From NCBI GenBank assembly GCA_963580965.1, contig CAUZNJ010000001.1, positions 1 through 29,073 on the forward strand: 29,073 nt of DNA, given 5' to 3'. The notes under the pieces were generated by a model. It saw nothing but the letters and a program-made list of their open reading frames with translations. It had not been told where the DNA came from and did not search any database. Positions 6,974 through 17,825 of this stretch are shown here, piece after piece (within the stretch, counting starts at the first letter, position 1; each line of letters opens with the position of its first letter). The DNA comes from Alphaproteobacteria bacterium (GTDB lineage: Bacteria; Pseudomonadota; Alphaproteobacteria; Rhodospirillales; CAMCUA01). Position numbers and translations under genes: made by a program.

Positions 6974-7049
6974 TGGTGGGCCCGACGGGGTTCGAACCCA
7001 TGACCCTCTGATTAAAAGTCAGATGCTCTACCAACTGAGCTACAGGCCC
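6974..7049 (-). tRNA. tRNA-Lys (UUU), 76 nt, CCA encoded
   Basis: Minus strand reads GGGCCTGTAGCTCAGTTGGTAGAGCATCTGACTTTTAATCAGAGGGTCATGGGTTCGAACCCCGTCGGGCCCACCA. Acceptor stem pairs, GTTCGAA T loop, CTTTTAA anticodon loop. Confidence 0.97.
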
Positions 7050-12154: not shown

Positions 12155-14494
12155 TTAAATGCGCGTCCGGCACAGGCGCAACGCATTGCCTATAACCAAG
12201 ACAGAACTCAGACTCATCGCAGCAGCGGCGATCATCGGACTCAGCAGAACCCCGAATACCGGATATAGAACGCCTGCGGCGATAGGCACACCAAGCGCGT
12301 TGTACACAAAAGCTAGGAACAGGTTTTGGCGAATGTTCGTCATCACCGCCTGGCTCAGCCGCCGCCCCCGTACAATCCCGGCAAGGTCACCCTTGACCAA
12401 CGTAATACTAGCACTTTCGATGGCGACATCCGTGCCCGTTCCCATGGCGACACCTACGTCAGCCTCGGCCAAGGCAGGTGCATCGTTAACACCGTCACCA
12501 ACCATCGCGACGACCCGCCCCTCGCCGCGCAGGCGACGCACAGCAGCACCTTTTTGCTCGGGCAAAACCTCCGCCTCGATAGCATCGATCCCAAGATTTT
12601 TCGCGACGGCATTTGCCGTAGTACGATTATCACCAGTCATCATAACGATGTGCACACCCTGCGTACGCAGGTCTTTCAGTGCTTGTACCGCTGATTTTTT
12701 AATCGGGTCGGCAACAGCGATCAGTCCGACAAGCGCGCCATCAGCTGCGACATACATCACGGTCGCCCCATCGCGGCGCAAATCTTCTGCACGTTTTTCA
12801 ACACCTACGATATCGATGATAAGATCGCCCATCAGCGTCCTATTGCCTAGCGCCACCGAATGGCCATCAACGATGCCCCGCACGCCCTTGCCCGTCTCGC
12901 CTTCAAACCGTGACGCCTCGCCAAAATGTATGCCGCGCTCTTGGGCTGCCGTGACAATTGCTGCCGCAAGCGGATGCTCGCTGCTGCGCTCCAGCGCCGC
13001 GGCTAGAGCCAAAATATCAACGCCATCACCAATGGGCTCGACAGCAGTTACCTTTGGCTTACCTTCGGTCAAGGTGCCCGTTTTATCGACGACAAGAGTA
13101 TCGACCTTCTCGAATCGTTCGAGCGCCTCGGCATTTTTAATCAGTACACCAGCCTGGGCACCACGCCCTGTGCCGACCATGATTGACATCGGCGTGGCCA
13201 GTCCCAGTGCACAAGGGCAGGCAATAATCAGCACAGAAACGGCAGCGACCAGAGCATGGGCGATGGCCGGCGCCGGACCCCAAATCAACCAGACAATGAA
13301 GACAATCACAGCTATAGCTATCACAGCGGGAACAAACCAACCCGCCACCTGATCAGCGACCCGCTGAATCGGTGCCCGGGTGCGCTGCGCTTCGCCGACC
13401 ATGGCTATAACACGCGCCAGCATCGTTTCTGCACCGATTTTCTCAGCCAACATGATGAAACTGCCGGTGCCATTTACGGTGCCGCCTATAACTAGGTCCC
13501 CTAGCCCTTTTTCCAACGGAATTGGCTCGCCAGTAATCATTGATTCATCAACACTGCTGCGGCCTTCCGTGACCACACCGTCGACCGGGATCTTGCTGCC
13601 GGGCAAAACGCGAAGTTGCATGCCTGCGGTAATGTCAGACAGTGATATTTCCTCGTTATCACCATCGGCGCGGATACGACGCGCTGTCTGCGGAGTCAAA
13701 TCCAGCAATGCGCGCAAGGCCCTGCCGGTTTGTTCTCGGGCGCGAATCTCTAAGACCTGCCCAATCAGAACCAGGATAATGATGACGGCGGCCGCCTCAT
13801 AATAGACGGCAACGGCCCCGTCATGTCCGCGCATGGATTCTGGAAATAGAACCGGAGAAAATGTTGCAACCAGGCTGTAAAGATAAGCTGCACCAGCACC
13901 CAAGCCGATCAAGCTGAACATGTTGAGGCTGCGGTTTATCACCGAGGCCCAGGCACGTTCGAAGAAGATAGCCCCCCCCCACAGAACAACCGGTGTAGCC
14001 AGAACGAATTGCGCCCAATTCCAGGCTGATGATGGCAGAAAATGTTTTAGGTCAATGATTTGCCCGCCCATCGCAATGATTAGCAGGGGAACCACCAACA
14101 CGCCCCCTACCCACATGCGCCGGGTCATGGCGATGAGTTCCACGTTCGGCCCCGCGTCCCCCGTCACGTCCATGGGCTCCAGTGCCATTCCGCATTTCCG
14201 ACAATCTCCCAGTCCTATCTGGACTATTTCCGGATGCATAGAACATGTGTACTGCGCACCGGGAACAGACGCAGATTTTGCTCTCTGGCAACCAAGAAAT
14301 TCTTCTGGATCAGCGGAAAAGCGATCATGACAACGGGCGCTGCAGAAATGATAGGCCGTACCGGCATGCTCTAAATGGTGGGCCGTCTTCATCGGGTCGA
14401 CCGTCATGCCGCATACGGGATCAACAGCAACAACCACCAAATCAGGGGCGGCGTAACCAGCAGTGTGATAGCCAGGGCTGGCGTCAGCGGCCAA
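12155..14494 (-). CDS. copA: P1B-1 Cu(I)/Ag(I)-translocating P-type ATPase with N-terminal YHS and heavy-metal-binding domains
   Basis: DPVCGM...[15 protein letters not shown]...[48 protein letters not shown] start with AGGGG RBS. Confidence 0.93.
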
Positions 14495-14608: not shown

Positions 14609-15508
14609 TCACCCCCGCCCCAAAGCCGCCTTGATCTGCACCGGAATATCCTTCAGATCGGCAGCAATACGAACACCGGATTGGCTCAGCATCTTCTTCT
14701 TTTCCGTCGGGCCATCGCCTTCGCCAGCAATGAAAGCGGCTGCGTGGCCGAAGCTAACGCCCACCGGCTGATTTTCCTGGAAGGTACCGGCGATGAGAGC
14801 AACGACCGGCTTCTTTACGCCATTGGCGCGCAAGTGTTCCGCAACCTCCCGTTCGTTGGGGGTGCCGGGTTCGCCAAACAATGCGATGGCCTTAGTCATC
14901 GGGTCATCCTCAAACATGCGGACGTAGTCGACCATACGCCGCCCGGTAATAGCGTCACCGCCCATGGCGACCGCAGTAGAAACTCCAAGACCGCCTTTCT
15001 TTAAAGCCCAGGCGACCTCCGCCACCATGCCCCCGGAGCGTGAGCAGATACCGACGGTTCCAGGTGCGTAAATCTCATCAGGATCGAGCCCCCCCATGCC
15101 ACCCATGCGCGCCTCACCGGGCGTGATGATGCCTACCGTGTTGAAGCCAACCATCACAGCGTCAGTTTTGCGCACGGCATCGACAACCTTGGCTGCGTCG
15201 TTGAGTGGCACCAATTCAGCTGGCGCAACGATCAAATGGATACCGGCAACCAGCGCTTCGAGAACCGCATCCTTGGCAGCTAGCGCCGGGACATAGACAA
15301 GACTAGCTTCCGCGCCATGTTGCTCAACCGCTTCGCGCACCGTGTCATAAACCGGGATTCCTTCGACGTCCTGACCGCCACGCCCCGGCGTCACGCCAGC
15401 AACAATGTGAGTACCATAATCGCGGCAGACCAGCGTATCCACGCGAGCCTGGGTGCCGGTAATCCCCTGGACGACAACGCGGGTGTTTTTCTCAAGAAGG
15501 ATGCTCAT
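14609..15508 (-). CDS. Succinyl-CoA synthetase alpha-like subunit of a divergent ADP-forming acyl-CoA ligase
   Basis: MSILL...RVVVQGITG, AGVTPGRGG, SRSGG, GGD, FGEPG, phospho-His motif FGHAAA (canonical MGHAGA), GFNTVG (canonical GPNCPG). Confidence 0.88.
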   Translation of the reverse strand: MSILLEKNTRVVVQGITGTQARVDTLVCRDYGTHIVAGVTPGRGGQDVEGIPVYDTVREAVEQHGAEASLVYVPALAAKDAVLEALVAGIHLIVAPAELVPLNDAAKVVDAVRKTDAVMVGFNTVGIITPGEARMGGMGGLDPDEIYAPGTVGICSRSGGMVAEVAWALKKGGLGVSTAVAMGGDAITGRRMVDYVRMFEDDPMTKAIALFGEPGTPNEREVAEHLRANGVKKPVVALIAGTFQENQPVGVSFGHAAAFIAGEGDGPTEKKKMLSQSGVRIAADLKDIPVQIKAALGRG

Positions 15509-16710
15509 TGCGTTACCCCCGTGCGGGTCAGGTCAACGATCAAACGGCAAGCGTCCTCCAGTGGCGTACCTGACGGCAGATAGTGGACCCCAGGCACCAT
15601 GGCAGCAGCTTCGCGCGCTTCAGCCTCGCGCGGACCGAACATACGAATGACGACGGGAAATTTGGCGTAGTCGATGCCCCGTTCGGCCAGCACCTGCATT
15701 ATCGGCTCAACCTTGCGGTCAGCACGGGTCATCTGCAAGTGGTTGGCGCTAATCAGCAAGCCACGGATGTTAGGGTTGTCAAGAACAGCGTGGGCCAGCG
15801 CCTTGATCTTATCCTGATTGATACCATTCATGTCCGAATGGTTGGCGGGCCGCCCTCCCATGGCGAGGATAAGATCATGCTGTAACAGCCCTGCACCGCC
15901 TCCGTTGAAGATCAGGCCGATATCGCCGTCGAGCTCGCTATAGCGAATCATCCCGCCGCGGTACCTCTGATTGGCAGCGAAAACCGCTCGTTCCCGTTCG
16001 TTGAGATTGCGACCGGCAAACATCCATTCGGGCTTAGCCTCGTCGGCAAGCCAGCTTGCCTGACGGCCCAGCGCGTCATCGTCAATGCCAACCATGGCAC
16101 CAACGAGTGACAGCTTCCCGTCTGTTTGGACGCAAAGGGGGTTTATCTCGAGCATCAACGCATCAGCGGTCTGAAAGGCGGTAAACAGGGAAGCAGTCAC
16201 CGCGCCCAATCTGGGCAGAATTTCACCATTAACGCCGGCAGATTTCCAGGCAGAAACGGCATCCCATGGGTTCAGGCCCTCAGTCGGATCGAGATCGATG
16301 ACGGTTATTGCATCAGGATTGGTCGCCTGGGTCTGTTCGATGTCGATACCGCCATGGCAGCTGAGTAGCAGCCGGGGCGGAAAACTTTCTAGATTGATAC
16401 TGAGATAGTATTCAGCAGCTATTTCGACCCTAGTTTCGACGTAAACCTCGTCCACACGATGGCCCTGCACGTCCGTTCCGAGCAAAGAATGGGCCGCCTC
16501 GGCCGCAGCCTCCGGAGAATTCACCACACGTACGCCGCCCGAAATTCCACGCCGCCCGGTTGGCACCAAAGCCTTGACGACGGCACTACCACCGAAACGG
16601 GCCGCAGCCTCAGCAGCTGCTCCGGGGGTTACCACCACAACACCATCCGGCACTGGAAATCCTTGGCGACGCAGCCAAACTTTTGCTTTATCTTCCGTCA
16701 GAGGCAGCAT
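15505..16710 (-). CDS. Succinyl-CoA synthetase beta-like subunit of a divergent ADP-forming acyl-CoA ligase
   Basis: ATP-grasp motifs VVKALVPTGRRGISGGV, EYYLSI, GGIDIE, LEINPL; ligase domain GDIGLIFNGGGAG, GGRPAN; ATGA overlap with the alpha subunit. Confidence 0.88.
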   Translation of the reverse strand: MLPLTEDKAKVWLRRQGFPVPDGVVVVTPGAAAEAAARFGGSAVVKALVPTGRRGISGGVRVVNSPEAAAEAAHSLLGTDVQGHRVDEVYVETRVEIAAEYYLSINLESFPPRLLLSCHGGIDIEQTQATNPDAITVIDLDPTEGLNPWDAVSAWKSAGVNGEILPRLGAVTASLFTAFQTADALMLEINPLCVQTDGKLSLVGAMVGIDDDALGRQASWLADEAKPEWMFAGRNLNERERAVFAANQRYRGGMIRYSELDGDIGLIFNGGGAGLLQHDLILAMGGRPANHSDMNGINQDKIKALAHAVLDNPNIRGLLISANHLQMTRADRKVEPIMQVLAERGIDYAKFPVVIRMFGPREAEAREAAAMVPGVHYLPSGTPLEDACRLIVDLTRTGVTQ

Positions 16711-16719
16711 GAATTTGCT

Positions 16720-17160
16720 TTAAACTCCTCGCAGGATGCCAGTGGCAGAACCGGCAAGAACAGTCACGCCATCCTGGTTATCGCAGCCAATTTCCAGGGC
16801 GAATTTCACGCCGTCGTCTAAATCTTCGCGTTCCGCAACAACGGCCCAGGGAGTGATAACGTCGTCCTCCAGCACCATACGAATGAACTTGGTTTCAATG
16901 GTGCCTCGGCTTAGCCAACCCGTACCGAATAGATCGAGCATCATCTGGATGACGTAACCTTGCCACTGGGTGCCCGAGGCATTGCGCTTCTTCAAGCCGC
17001 AACTTTCGGCATGGGCGAGGTCGGTATGGATATTGACCAGTGGCCAGCCGTCCATCTCAAACGGACCGCCAGAAAAGGCACGCATACGCGCCGGCGATAA
17101 CCGATAGTCTCGGCCACGCATCTCTGCGCCCGGCTGACTGGCAGTAGTCAGGTCAGTCAT
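16720..17160 (-). CDS. MaoC-like hotdog-fold acyl-CoA dehydratase subunit
   Basis: NIHTDLAHAESCGL..RNASG resembles the MaoC hydratase motif; KFIRMV..DDVITP and C-terminal beta strands. Confidence 0.72.
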   Translation of the reverse strand: MTDLTTASQPGAEMRGRDYRLSPARMRAFSGGPFEMDGWPLVNIHTDLAHAESCGLKKRNASGTQWQGYVIQMMLDLFGTGWLSRGTIETKFIRMVLEDDVITPWAVVAEREDLDDGVKFALEIGCDNQDGVTVLAGSATGILRGV

Positions 17161-17591
17161 GCCTCCCCACCCTTGATGTGAGTGTTGTGGCTAAAACGGC
17201 GAAAAATATCCCGGCCATCCTCGTCAATTACACGGCAGTCAATAACCATGAAGTCCCGTCCGCGCCTTTTATAGCGTTCGCAGACCGTCCAAGTAACGTT
17301 GAGCTTTTTGCCGACATAGGCCGGGCTGATAAATTCAATAATATCCTTAGCATGCAGGACGCTATGGCCCTCGGGCATGTAGAAAGAAGGGCTACGTGTG
17401 CGGTTGGACATGTTAAGGATCAGAGCCGGGTGAACGAGTGGCGGGTCGCCACTATCGCCCTGCCTGTAACGGGAGTCGTAGTCTTCCTCAGCGTAGCAAT
17501 ACTGCTCGTTGAGATCCGGTGTGACGTGAAAGCTGTAGGGCGCGTAAGACTCACCAACCGCCAAGTCGGTCGCCACTTTGCGTTCGCTCAT
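17157..17591 (-). CDS. Hotdog-fold (MaoC N-terminal/HadA-like) protein
   Basis: LAVGE, PPLVHPAL, VLHA...EFISPAYVG, ERY.RRGR.FMVI..RVIDEDG. ATG 17591 chosen over TTG 17630; ATGA overlap with the next gene. Confidence 0.7.
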   Translation of the reverse strand: MSERKVATDLAVGESYAPYSFHVTPDLNEQYCYAEEDYDSRYRQGDSGDPPLVHPALILNMSNRTRSPSFYMPEGHSVLHAKDIIEFISPAYVGKKLNVTWTVCERYKRRGRDFMVIDCRVIDEDGRDIFRRFSHNTHIKGGEA

Positions 17592-17675
17592 AATCGCTAC
17601 CGCTGATGCGCACTGACGAAGCAGTGACAAAAATAGAAGCAGCCGGATCCCATTGGAATTCTGACTGTAGGCAAC

Positions 17676-17705
17676 AAATTAGCGCTAATGCACGGACAAT
17701 GACAA
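17676..17705 (-). promoter_or_regulatory. Putative promoter with overlapping LacI-type operator for the hotdog/CoA-ligase operon
   Basis: TTGTCA (17700-17705)-18 nt-TAATTT (17676-17681). A perfect 12-bp palindrome ATTAGCGCTAAT (17678-17689) overlaps the -10. Confidence 0.5.
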
Positions 17706-17726
17706 GTCCGCCCCCGCCGCTCGCCC

Positions 17727-17755
17727 TTGACGCTTCGCCGGACCGGCTTCATTCT
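17727..17755 (+). promoter_or_regulatory. Putative sigma70 promoter of trpG-trpD-trpC-moaC-moeA
   Basis: TTGACG-17 nt-CATTCT. Confidence 0.45.
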
Positions 17756-17825
17756 GGGAGAAAGAGAGCCTAGATCATCCTTAGAATTATTTTTAAGATT
17801 TAGAAAAACCATATAAGTTATTGCA

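Follow-up and report, generated by a model that had tools for sequence, protein, structure and literature searches.

We analysed a 29,073-nt stretch of contig CAUZNJ010000001.1 (assembly GCA_963580965.1), referred to here as the window, within which all coordinates are counted. Its minus strand carries four co-directional, close-packed genes in the order hdA-hdB-beta-alpha (Table 1), the first two encoding small hotdog-fold proteins and the last two the subunits of a ligase related to succinyl-CoA synthetase (SCS). Four-nucleotide ATGA overlaps join hdA to hdB and beta to alpha, and a spacer of 9 nt separates hdB from beta; an earlier description made from the letters alone (the sequence-only reading) had proposed a four-gene operon with an ATGA overlap in each pair, and both the open reading frames (ORFs) and the junctions bear this out. 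We place the start of hdA at the ATG at 17591, where its homologues begin, and not at the upstream TTG at 17630. A copper P-type ATPase gene flanks the operon downstream and trpG-trpD-trpC-moaC-moeA-lexA upstream; as these are unrelated housekeeping genes, the four genes make up a self-contained unit. Our survey of the window's genes also agrees with the earlier statement that sucAB and mdh are absent from the flanks. The divergent intergenic region between hdA and trpG is presumed, purely from its position, to act as the promoter: it is gene-free, no Rfam family or convincing sigma-70 consensus was found in it, and scans for a promoter and terminator of the operon gave nothing above chance level.

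Table 1. Features of the operon (positions within the 29,073-nt window).
Feature	Position	Strand	Length	Description
hdA	17157..17591	-	144 aa	HadA/FAS1_DH_region-type hotdog subunit, probably the non-catalytic, substrate-shaping half
hdB	16720..17160	-	146 aa	MaoC-like hotdog subunit, motif His present, hydratase-2 Asp absent
beta	15505..16710	-	401 aa	SucC-like, ATP-grasp domain and strongly diverged acid-binding C-terminal domain
alpha	14609..15508	-	299 aa	SucD-like, CoA-binding domain and phosphohistidine domain
hdA-trpG divergent intergenic region	17592..17825		234 nt	presumed operon promoter region

Beta matches the Pfam family ATP-grasp_2 at 134 bits and alpha matches CoA_binding, Succ_CoA_lig and Ligase_CoA. 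The phosphohistidine loop FGHAAA and the Glu of GEPGT are retained in alpha, as is the Glu of LEINPL in beta, in keeping with the earlier claim that the ATP-grasp and phospho-His motifs had been kept. Since the catalytic His and both Glu residues are present, a phosphohistidine ADP-forming mechanism is expected. With its ATP-grasp, CoA-binding and phosphohistidine features all in place, the beta/alpha pair is, as judged from sequence, an NDP-forming acyl-CoA synthetase of the SCS/ATP-citrate lyase (ACL) superfamily. It scores well under the NCBIfam cut-offs for the named members of that superfamily, beta reaching 208.7 bits against SucC (NF001913, cut-off 370) and 161 bits against MtkA (NF010647, cut-off 604), and alpha 279.7 bits against SucD (NF004230, cut-off 336). 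The best PDB sequence match of beta is 3ufx_B (191 bits), the closest solved structures being succinyl-CoA synthetases, and its score to 6hxq_B is 116 bits. No Pfam family, Citrate_bind (PF16114) included, matches the C-terminal 151 residues of beta even at E 10. All of the succinate-side changes quoted in the sequence-only reading are present and align as it stated: NGGGAGLLQHD in beta with NGAGLAMATMD in SucC, ANHSDMNG with ANFLDVGG, SANHLQMTRAD with NI-FGGIxRCD (the beta loop being longer by one residue) and, in alpha, GFNTVG with GPNCPG of SucD.

These rewritten loops are real but are not particular to this gene; they belong to a whole family. The protein database contains hundreds of relatives at ~45-57% identity in Alpha- and Betaproteobacteria; those that carry a name are listed as succinyl-CoA synthetase beta subunit, 'acetate--CoA ligase family protein' or 'ATP-grasp domain-containing protein'. 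The homologues number roughly 960, and organisms in culture that have the family include Roseinatronobacter bogoriensis DSM 18756 (crotonase type), Lutimaribacter degradans, Falsiroseomonas sp. CW058 and Paludibacillus litoralis HZG-20 (carboxyltransferase type). A scan at one genome per species yielded 116 family loci, of which 79 were fetched and their neighbouring genes identified by crude ORF calling (L, G and C numbers below are our handles for loci, genomes and contigs). Across ~80 loci the beta loops read GGGGAGLLQHD, PANH[ST]D and N[FH]LQ[LM], the last of them one residue longer than in SucC, and the family-wide alpha motifs are GFNTxG, SRSGGM, GEPGT and FGH[VA]AA, which retain the catalytic His and Glu. 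In trees built by quick searches, with Shimodaira-Hasegawa-like approximate likelihood ratio (SH-aLRT) support and no bootstraps, the family forms a well-supported clade of its own (97-99% SH-aLRT) that excludes SucC, MtkA and two more groups of SucC-like paralogues. Equally excluded are the Citrate_bind-bearing proteins of Pseudomonadota that resemble citryl-CoA synthetase (CCS) or ACL, to which the branch is very long. True MtkA (L094, L095; 686 bits) groups with SucC, apart from the family, and departs from SucC far less than the family does. The phylogenetic comparison suggested with the sequence-only reading thus separates the family from SucC, from MtkA and from the CCS/ACL-like proteins alike. 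There is nevertheless some resemblance to the last of these: loop 1 'GGGA', the longer loop 3 and a 'GP' motif are found in both, the ESM Atlas neighbours of the family agree with this, and some family members score 27-28 bits against Citrate_bind, just over its cut-off of 26.8 bits, where genuine Citrate_bind proteins score 60-71 bits. No homologue was found on 72,556 plasmids at E 1e-60; nor was a fused beta of at least 703 residues found, although this is weak evidence. Taken together, the ligase is a separate, uncharacterised paralogue lineage, a large sister family on sequence grounds, of the succinyl-CoA-synthetase superfamily.

Several other diverged SCS paralogues came to light alongside the family. 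The two further SucC-like groups, at ~340-380 and 240-260 bits to the SucC model, occur in relatives from the same order (G015:C96, G006:C24, G005:C16 and G004:C13, loci L100, L101, L106 and L107; G003:C82, G023:C53 and G016:C661, loci L102-L104). Both have altered loops of their own (e.g. NF-CGAFARCD) and neither is MtkA. In addition, 43 of the 301 Pseudomonadota genomes sampled have CCS/ACL-like systems in which a protein of ~427 residues with a full Citrate_bind domain is paired with an alpha-like protein of more than 445 residues (L118-L125). In some families of Proteobacteria such systems are fairly common.

The sequence-only reading had called for a check that a canonical sucCD lies elsewhere in the genome. 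The source metagenome-assembled genome (MAG; G000) is 79% complete, with 335 contigs and 2.2 Mb, and no canonical sucC or sucD was found in its assembled contigs. Taken by itself this would count against the reading, but three results argue otherwise: (i) in the same-genus genome G001 a canonical SucC (605 bits) occurs together with the four-gene module, whose proteins are 74% (hdA), 69% (hdB), 72% (beta) and 85% (alpha) identical to those of the window; (ii) contig C311 of the MAG (L108, L109) ends inside mdh, leaving an open-ended malate dehydrogenase fragment of 175 residues, and the G001 gene order mdh-sucC-sucD continues where C311 stops; and (iii) genome G002 (94% complete) has the canonical enzyme only. 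Given the break inside mdh and the content of these two genomes, the missing canonical sucCD most likely reflects an assembly gap, and the four-gene module is most likely an accessory paralogue, with identities to the canonical SucCD of the same genus of 31% for beta and 39% for alpha.

The other half of the operon is the hotdog pair. hdA has no Pfam match, and hdB scores 17.9 bits against MaoC_dehydratas (PF01575), under the gathering cut-off of 27. The predicted structure of hdB has a predicted local distance difference test (pLDDT) score of 94.8 and that of hdA (AlphaFold) a score of 93.3. Foldseek matches of hdB include MaoC-like dehydratases, PhaJ1, HadAB, ChsH1-ChsH2 and mesaconyl-CoA hydratases (8hgn, 4e3e), and the profile of its subfamily matches PDB 1q6w (E 2.5e-8) and PhaJ. 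In Foldseek, hdA matches HadA from the HadAB heterodimer of M. tuberculosis best; other MaoC-like hydratases come next and thioesterases of the FlK type rank lower. Its ESM Atlas neighbours carry FAS1_DH_region (PF13452). Going by these models, both of which are confident, hdA and hdB would thus make up a HadAB-type hydratase 2 whose double hotdog is split over two genes, a predicted HadAB-like heterodimer in which hdA is probably the non-catalytic, substrate-shaping half.

The sequence-only reading had remarked that hdB has the motif His (NIH) and no Asp at the usual position, and the alignments confirm it in a stronger form. His45 (NIHTD) is invariant, the Asp position is taken by an invariant Gly (SGG), and an 8-residue insertion with an invariant Trp-Pro follows; the invariant residues in all are S30-G31-G32, W39-P40, N43, H45, D47, S62-G63 and Q65. 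Among the 149 library representatives that match the hdB subfamily best, a single one has the canonical SGDxNPxH motif. The lack of the Asp across the subfamily indicates a stable trait of a sizeable subfamily and not decay. In hdA, E36 and D37 are nearly invariant, and the invariant V53-H54-P55 aligns, in a gap-free hidden Markov model (HMM) alignment, with the PhaJ 'VHG' at the start of the central helix and not with the catalytic His; a by-eye alignment of the hdA 'EDFDPRY' with the PhaJ motif conflicts with this HMM alignment. We also considered the D-x4-H of the window's hdA (GDPPLVH) as a dyad and rejected it, as it is unconserved among homologues.

Beta and alpha are neighbours in the loci examined, and the hotdog pair lies directly upstream of the ligase in 17 other species-level genomes, so that the co-occurrence on which the sequence-only reading had staked its module is found well beyond the window. 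The 17 loci span four clades of the ligase tree (L081; L068 and L091; a nine-member clade; and L015-L019, with the window), and in two of them (L075 and L079) a single gene encodes both hotdogs. Among the library representatives, many of ~300 residues likewise have an hdB-type domain in their C-terminal half. In the clade adjoining that of the window, a crotonase-type enoyl-CoA hydratase gene takes the place directly upstream of beta (L022, L026, L088). This occupation of the slot by a different hydratase is the strongest indirect argument for a hydratase role of the hotdogs on the product of the ligase. Two of these loci, L022 and L026, have a citryl-CoA lyase gene right after alpha (NF004864, 387 bits, cut-off 261) and then a TctC receptor gene. 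The order crotonase-beta-alpha-citryl-CoA lyase-TctC seen there amounts to a split ATP-citrate-lyase-like set in heterotrophic Proteobacteria.

The hotdogs are just one among several partners of the ligase family. The commonest is a carboxyltransferase, encoded within 2.5 kb of the ligase in 37 of 78 loci and often accompanied by biotin carboxylase and biotin carboxyl carrier protein (BCCP). MmgE/PrpD-family proteins, Amidohydro_2 proteins, TctC, tripartite ATP-independent periplasmic (TRAP; DctP) and TAXI receptors and GntR/LysR regulators also recur, together with fumarate-reductase-like flavoproteins. TcuA is another recurrent neighbour, the one in L054 scoring 478 bits where the cut-off is 369. 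The nearest clade outside the genus (L017-L019) has a medium-chain dehydrogenase/reductase (MDR) gene between hdB and beta, and the subfamily closest to its product is one of generic quinone oxidoreductases. A thiamine diphosphate (ThDP) enzyme is encoded in L068 and L091, and L019 has a gene resembling maleate isomerase/arylmalonate decarboxylase (AMDase). L015 and L016 carry a D-2-hydroxyacid dehydrogenase gene beside the module, of which the MAG has no clear orthologue (best match 38% identity among 21 paralogues). Most of these neighbours score well under orthologue cut-offs, only TcuA and citryl-CoA lyase passing. We rejected the PrpD-like, carboxyltransferase and MDR neighbours as orthologues of PrpD, PccB and AcuI, and a propionyl-CoA reading of the family was down-weighted as a result.

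Drawing these lines together, we favor the possibility, at a probability of roughly 55%, that the operon encodes a pathway segment in which the ligase activates, and the hotdog pair then hydrates or dehydrates, one organic acid, likely a substituted di- or tricarboxylic acid. The sequence-only reading had proposed a module that CoA-activates and (de)hydrates an organic acid, and the paralogue family and the (R)-hydratase/HadAB folds lend support to this, the function itself being proposed from them. In the first step beta and alpha would act as a heteromeric ADP-forming acyl-CoA synthetase and follow the mechanism of SCS: the conserved His of alpha would be phosphorylated by ATP that the ATP-grasp domain binds, the phosphate would move from the His to the acid to give an acyl-phosphate, and attack by CoA would yield the thioester. 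The acid pocket appears to be rebuilt, several loop residues having become His or Gln and one loop being a residue longer, which suggests that the substrate is not succinate or malate. In the second step the predicted hdA-hdB heterodimer would add water to, or remove it from, the CoA ester. Cleavage or reduction of the CoA product would then fall to enzymes from other loci of the genome, which has 18 genes of the HpcH/CitE type. The analysis establishes the gene order, the folds, the retention of the catalytic His and Glu, the separate clade, the conserved synteny and the fusion of the hotdogs; we infer the heterodimer, the direction of the reactions, hydratase activity without the Asp and the class of substrate. 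The likeliest candidates for the substrate are C4-dicarboxylates bearing a substituent and tricarboxylates, of the itaconate, mesaconate, methylsuccinate, citramalate or aconitate type. According to a 2025 paper (PMC12290011), every MmgE/PrpD enzyme characterised so far acts on substituted 1,4-dicarboxylates, and succinyl-CoA synthetase is reported there to activate itaconate. Together with the tricarboxylate receptors, these facts favor a succinate-, fumarate-, malate- or citrate-type acid bearing a substituent.

Several observations weigh against this interpretation. There is no transporter, lyase or regulator gene within the operon. The three closest genomes share as context only the D-2-hydroxyacid dehydrogenase, and this in two of them. 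The TcuA, citryl-CoA lyase and PrpD neighbours belong to subclades other than that of the window, so the substrate class is assigned in part from other branches of the family; a TcuA link for the window's own wider clade was tried and rejected, as the flavoprotein of L017 scores 136.9 bits against the 369 required. The carboxyltransferases reach 300-330 bits against a cut-off of 998 and the PrpD-like proteins 54-85 bits against 950. With hdB lacking the canonical hydratase-2 Asp and hdA the canonical dyad, hydratase activity is not assured. Finally, a full-text literature search returned no paper on the family and no characterised member of it, and no mention of aconityl-CoA or tricarballylyl-CoA.

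The last but one of these points opens the way to a different account of the hotdog pair, namely that, the Asp-His dyad being missing, it is not a hydratase but a thioesterase, an isomerase or a non-catalytic partner. The invariant Gly at the Asp position of hdB with the insertion alongside it, the near absence of SGDxNPxH from the best representatives of the subfamily and the lower-ranking FlK-type matches of hdA are all compatible with this account. We nevertheless consider it unlikely, because both proteins match (R)-hydratases and HadAB best, in structure as well as by profile, because the same position upstream of beta is held by a crotonase hydratase in sister clades, and because the invariant motif His and several polar residues argue for catalysis; moreover, a ligase paired with a thioesterase would make a futile cycle.

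We consider it no more probable that the acid is a small monocarboxylic one, such as 3-hydroxypropionate, acrylate or a further enoic or 3-hydroxy acid, and that the hotdogs serve as the dehydratase of a split route to propionyl-CoA resembling propionyl-CoA synthase. The MDR reductase between hdB and beta in L017-L019 would complete a ligase-dehydratase-reductase set, and the carboxyltransferase/biotin carboxylase/BCCP and PrpD-family neighbours found elsewhere would correspond to the two classical fates of propionyl-CoA. However, the low carboxyltransferase and PrpD-like scores given above, and the fact that the MDR proteins are nearest to generic quinone oxidoreductases, count against such a route, and the TctC receptors, citryl-CoA lyase, TcuA and Citrate_bind-like features of the family suit polycarboxylates better.

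A much more specific form of the favored reading can also be put forward, though we would give it a slightly smaller chance than either of these alternatives. An unsaturated polycarboxylate, for instance aconitate, itaconate or mesaconate, would be ligated to CoA and then hydrated by the Asp-less heterodimer, whose catalytic arrangement of His45 of hdB with an acidic residue of hdA would be new, to give a citryl-, citramalyl- or malyl-CoA-type ester for a lyase, and the family would be a third, previously unrecognised functional lineage of the SCS superfamily. If this were true, the steps would make up a catabolic, split analogue of ATP-citrate lyase serving the CoA-dependent catabolism of substituted C4-dicarboxylates and tricarboxylates.

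It is also conceivable, if improbable, that the operon runs in the SCS direction: a CoA ester formed elsewhere would be (de)hydrated by the hotdogs, and beta and alpha would then release the free acid and ATP, conserving energy and recycling CoA. The SCS reaction is freely reversible and runs toward the free acid in the tricarboxylic acid (TCA) cycle, and the operon has no transporter for an external acid. Sequence cannot tell the direction, but many family loci have TctC, DctP or TAXI receptors and catabolic regulators, a pattern of uptake followed by activation. That the ligase is simply a diverged housekeeping succinyl-CoA synthetase of the TCA cycle seems to us barely credible: the assembled MAG has no further sucC or sucD and the nearest solved structures are of that enzyme, but the scores fall well under both equivalog cut-offs, the succinate-side loops are replaced, beta is only 31% identical to the canonical SucC of the genus and in a separate clade, G001 has both enzymes where G002 has only the canonical one, and C311 breaks just upstream of the position that sucCD holds in G001, in an incomplete MAG.

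A number of further observations concern the surroundings of the module and of the family. At 1.5 kb upstream of the module in L015, the closest complete relative, are a gene for aconitase X (AcnX) and an ORF of 178 aa that overlaps the end of this gene, and a gamma-glutamyltranspeptidase-family gene begins 5 nt past alpha, with a further FAS1_DH_region protein of 296 residues beyond it (L015:2802-4462 and L015:10108-11763). Seven Rhodobacterales loci (L072, L073, L077, L080, L082, L086, L090) share a conserved cluster with three carboxyltransferase genes, which is unusual for an acyl-CoA carboxylase; its order is GntR, BCCP and carboxyltransferase, then carboxyltransferase and biotin carboxylase, then the third carboxyltransferase and finally the ligase family. 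In L028, L029, L031 and L036 the ligase is followed by a ~200-aa protein, FAD-binding and molybdopterin subunits of the xanthine-dehydrogenase type and then a crotonase, a layout that we take to resemble the furoyl-CoA dehydrogenase cluster hmfABCDE. Upstream in these four loci are genes for a PrpD-like protein, a flavoprotein (FAD_binding_2, in the same BLAST cluster as the L054 TcuA) and a carboxyltransferase. The MAG itself has an unusually rich repertoire for organic acids and acyl-CoA lyases, its HpcH/CitE-type genes encoding lyases or aldolases and its D-2-hydroxyacid dehydrogenase paralogues numbering 21; several of these genes form adjacent pairs (e.g. C60:6828-7748 with C60:7962-8633), and the contigs that bear them include C60, C4, C57, C45 and C177 (loci L110-L117 and L126-L133). 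Within the window, the copper-type P1B ATPase, which has YHS and HMBD as metal-binding domains at its N-terminus (12155-14494, minus strand), lies 114 nt downstream of alpha, and we left it out of the operon as it is not found after alpha in L015 or L016. The sole Rfam match across the window is a tRNA gene (6977-7049, minus strand), and Rfam gave no RNA family close to the operon.

What makes the family worth pursuing is that SCS paralogues routinely receive the annotation sucCD or 'ATP-grasp domain-containing protein', and this one sits in many differing orphan catabolic clusters, so that its acid substrate, once found, would assign a function to all of them together. It could reveal routes for branched di- and tricarboxylic acids that are initiated by an ATP-dependent CoA ligase, such routes now being known mainly via CoA transferases. 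The Asp-less 'NIHTD' hotdog subfamily, for its part, raises the question of (R)-hydratase chemistry without the canonical dyad.

Several known systems can be compared with the operon. With SucCD (EC 6.2.1.5; E. coli 1SCU/2SCU, Thermus 3UFX) it shares the beta-alpha order, translational coupling, the same domains, and the catalytic His and both Glu residues, but it has three acid-side loops and four alpha motifs replaced, forms a separate clade and lacks the mdh/sucAB context. The hotdog pair resembles the (3R)-hydroxyacyl-ACP dehydratases HadAB/HadBC of Mycobacterium and ChsH1-ChsH2 in that two small hotdog genes adjoin and overlap, the first coding for a FAS1_DH_region (HadA) type and the second for a MaoC (HadB) type. 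Identities to these are, however, 13-19%, HadB has Asp-x4-His where hdB has the Gly and the Trp-Pro insertion, and the partner in the operon is a CoA ligase instead of fatty-acid synthase II or steroid catabolism.

In pathway logic the operon parallels the Ict-Ich-Ccl(-Mcd-MmgE) cluster for itaconate and methylsuccinate degradation (PMC12290011), along with the mesaconyl-CoA hydratases Mch/MeaC, where CoA activation of a branched dicarboxylate is followed by a MaoC-type double-hotdog hydratase. MmgE/PrpD proteins are likewise frequent near the ligase family, and mesaconyl-CoA hydratases are among the structural matches of hdB. The operon differs from Ict-Ich-Ccl in using an ATP-dependent SCS-like ligase in place of a CoA transferase, in having a split hydratase without the canonical Asp and in having no citramalyl-CoA lyase; its likeness to Ich is one of logic. 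CcsAB with Ccl (Hydrogenobacter; 6HXQ) and ATP-citrate lyase offer precedent for a ligase of the SCS superfamily that acts on a larger polycarboxylate and whose CoA product is cleaved by a lyase. Besides the loop 1, loop 3 and 'GP' features already described, the family has a lyase after alpha in L022 and L026, although the window's beta lacks Citrate_bind and is closer to SucC than to 6hxq_B, and the operon has no lyase. Lastly, MtkAB shows that an SCS paralogue can activate a substituted C4-dicarboxylate for a downstream lyase, but MtkA retains the SucC-like loops NGAGLAMATMD, ANFLDIGG and NIFAGINRCD and its place beside SucC in the tree.

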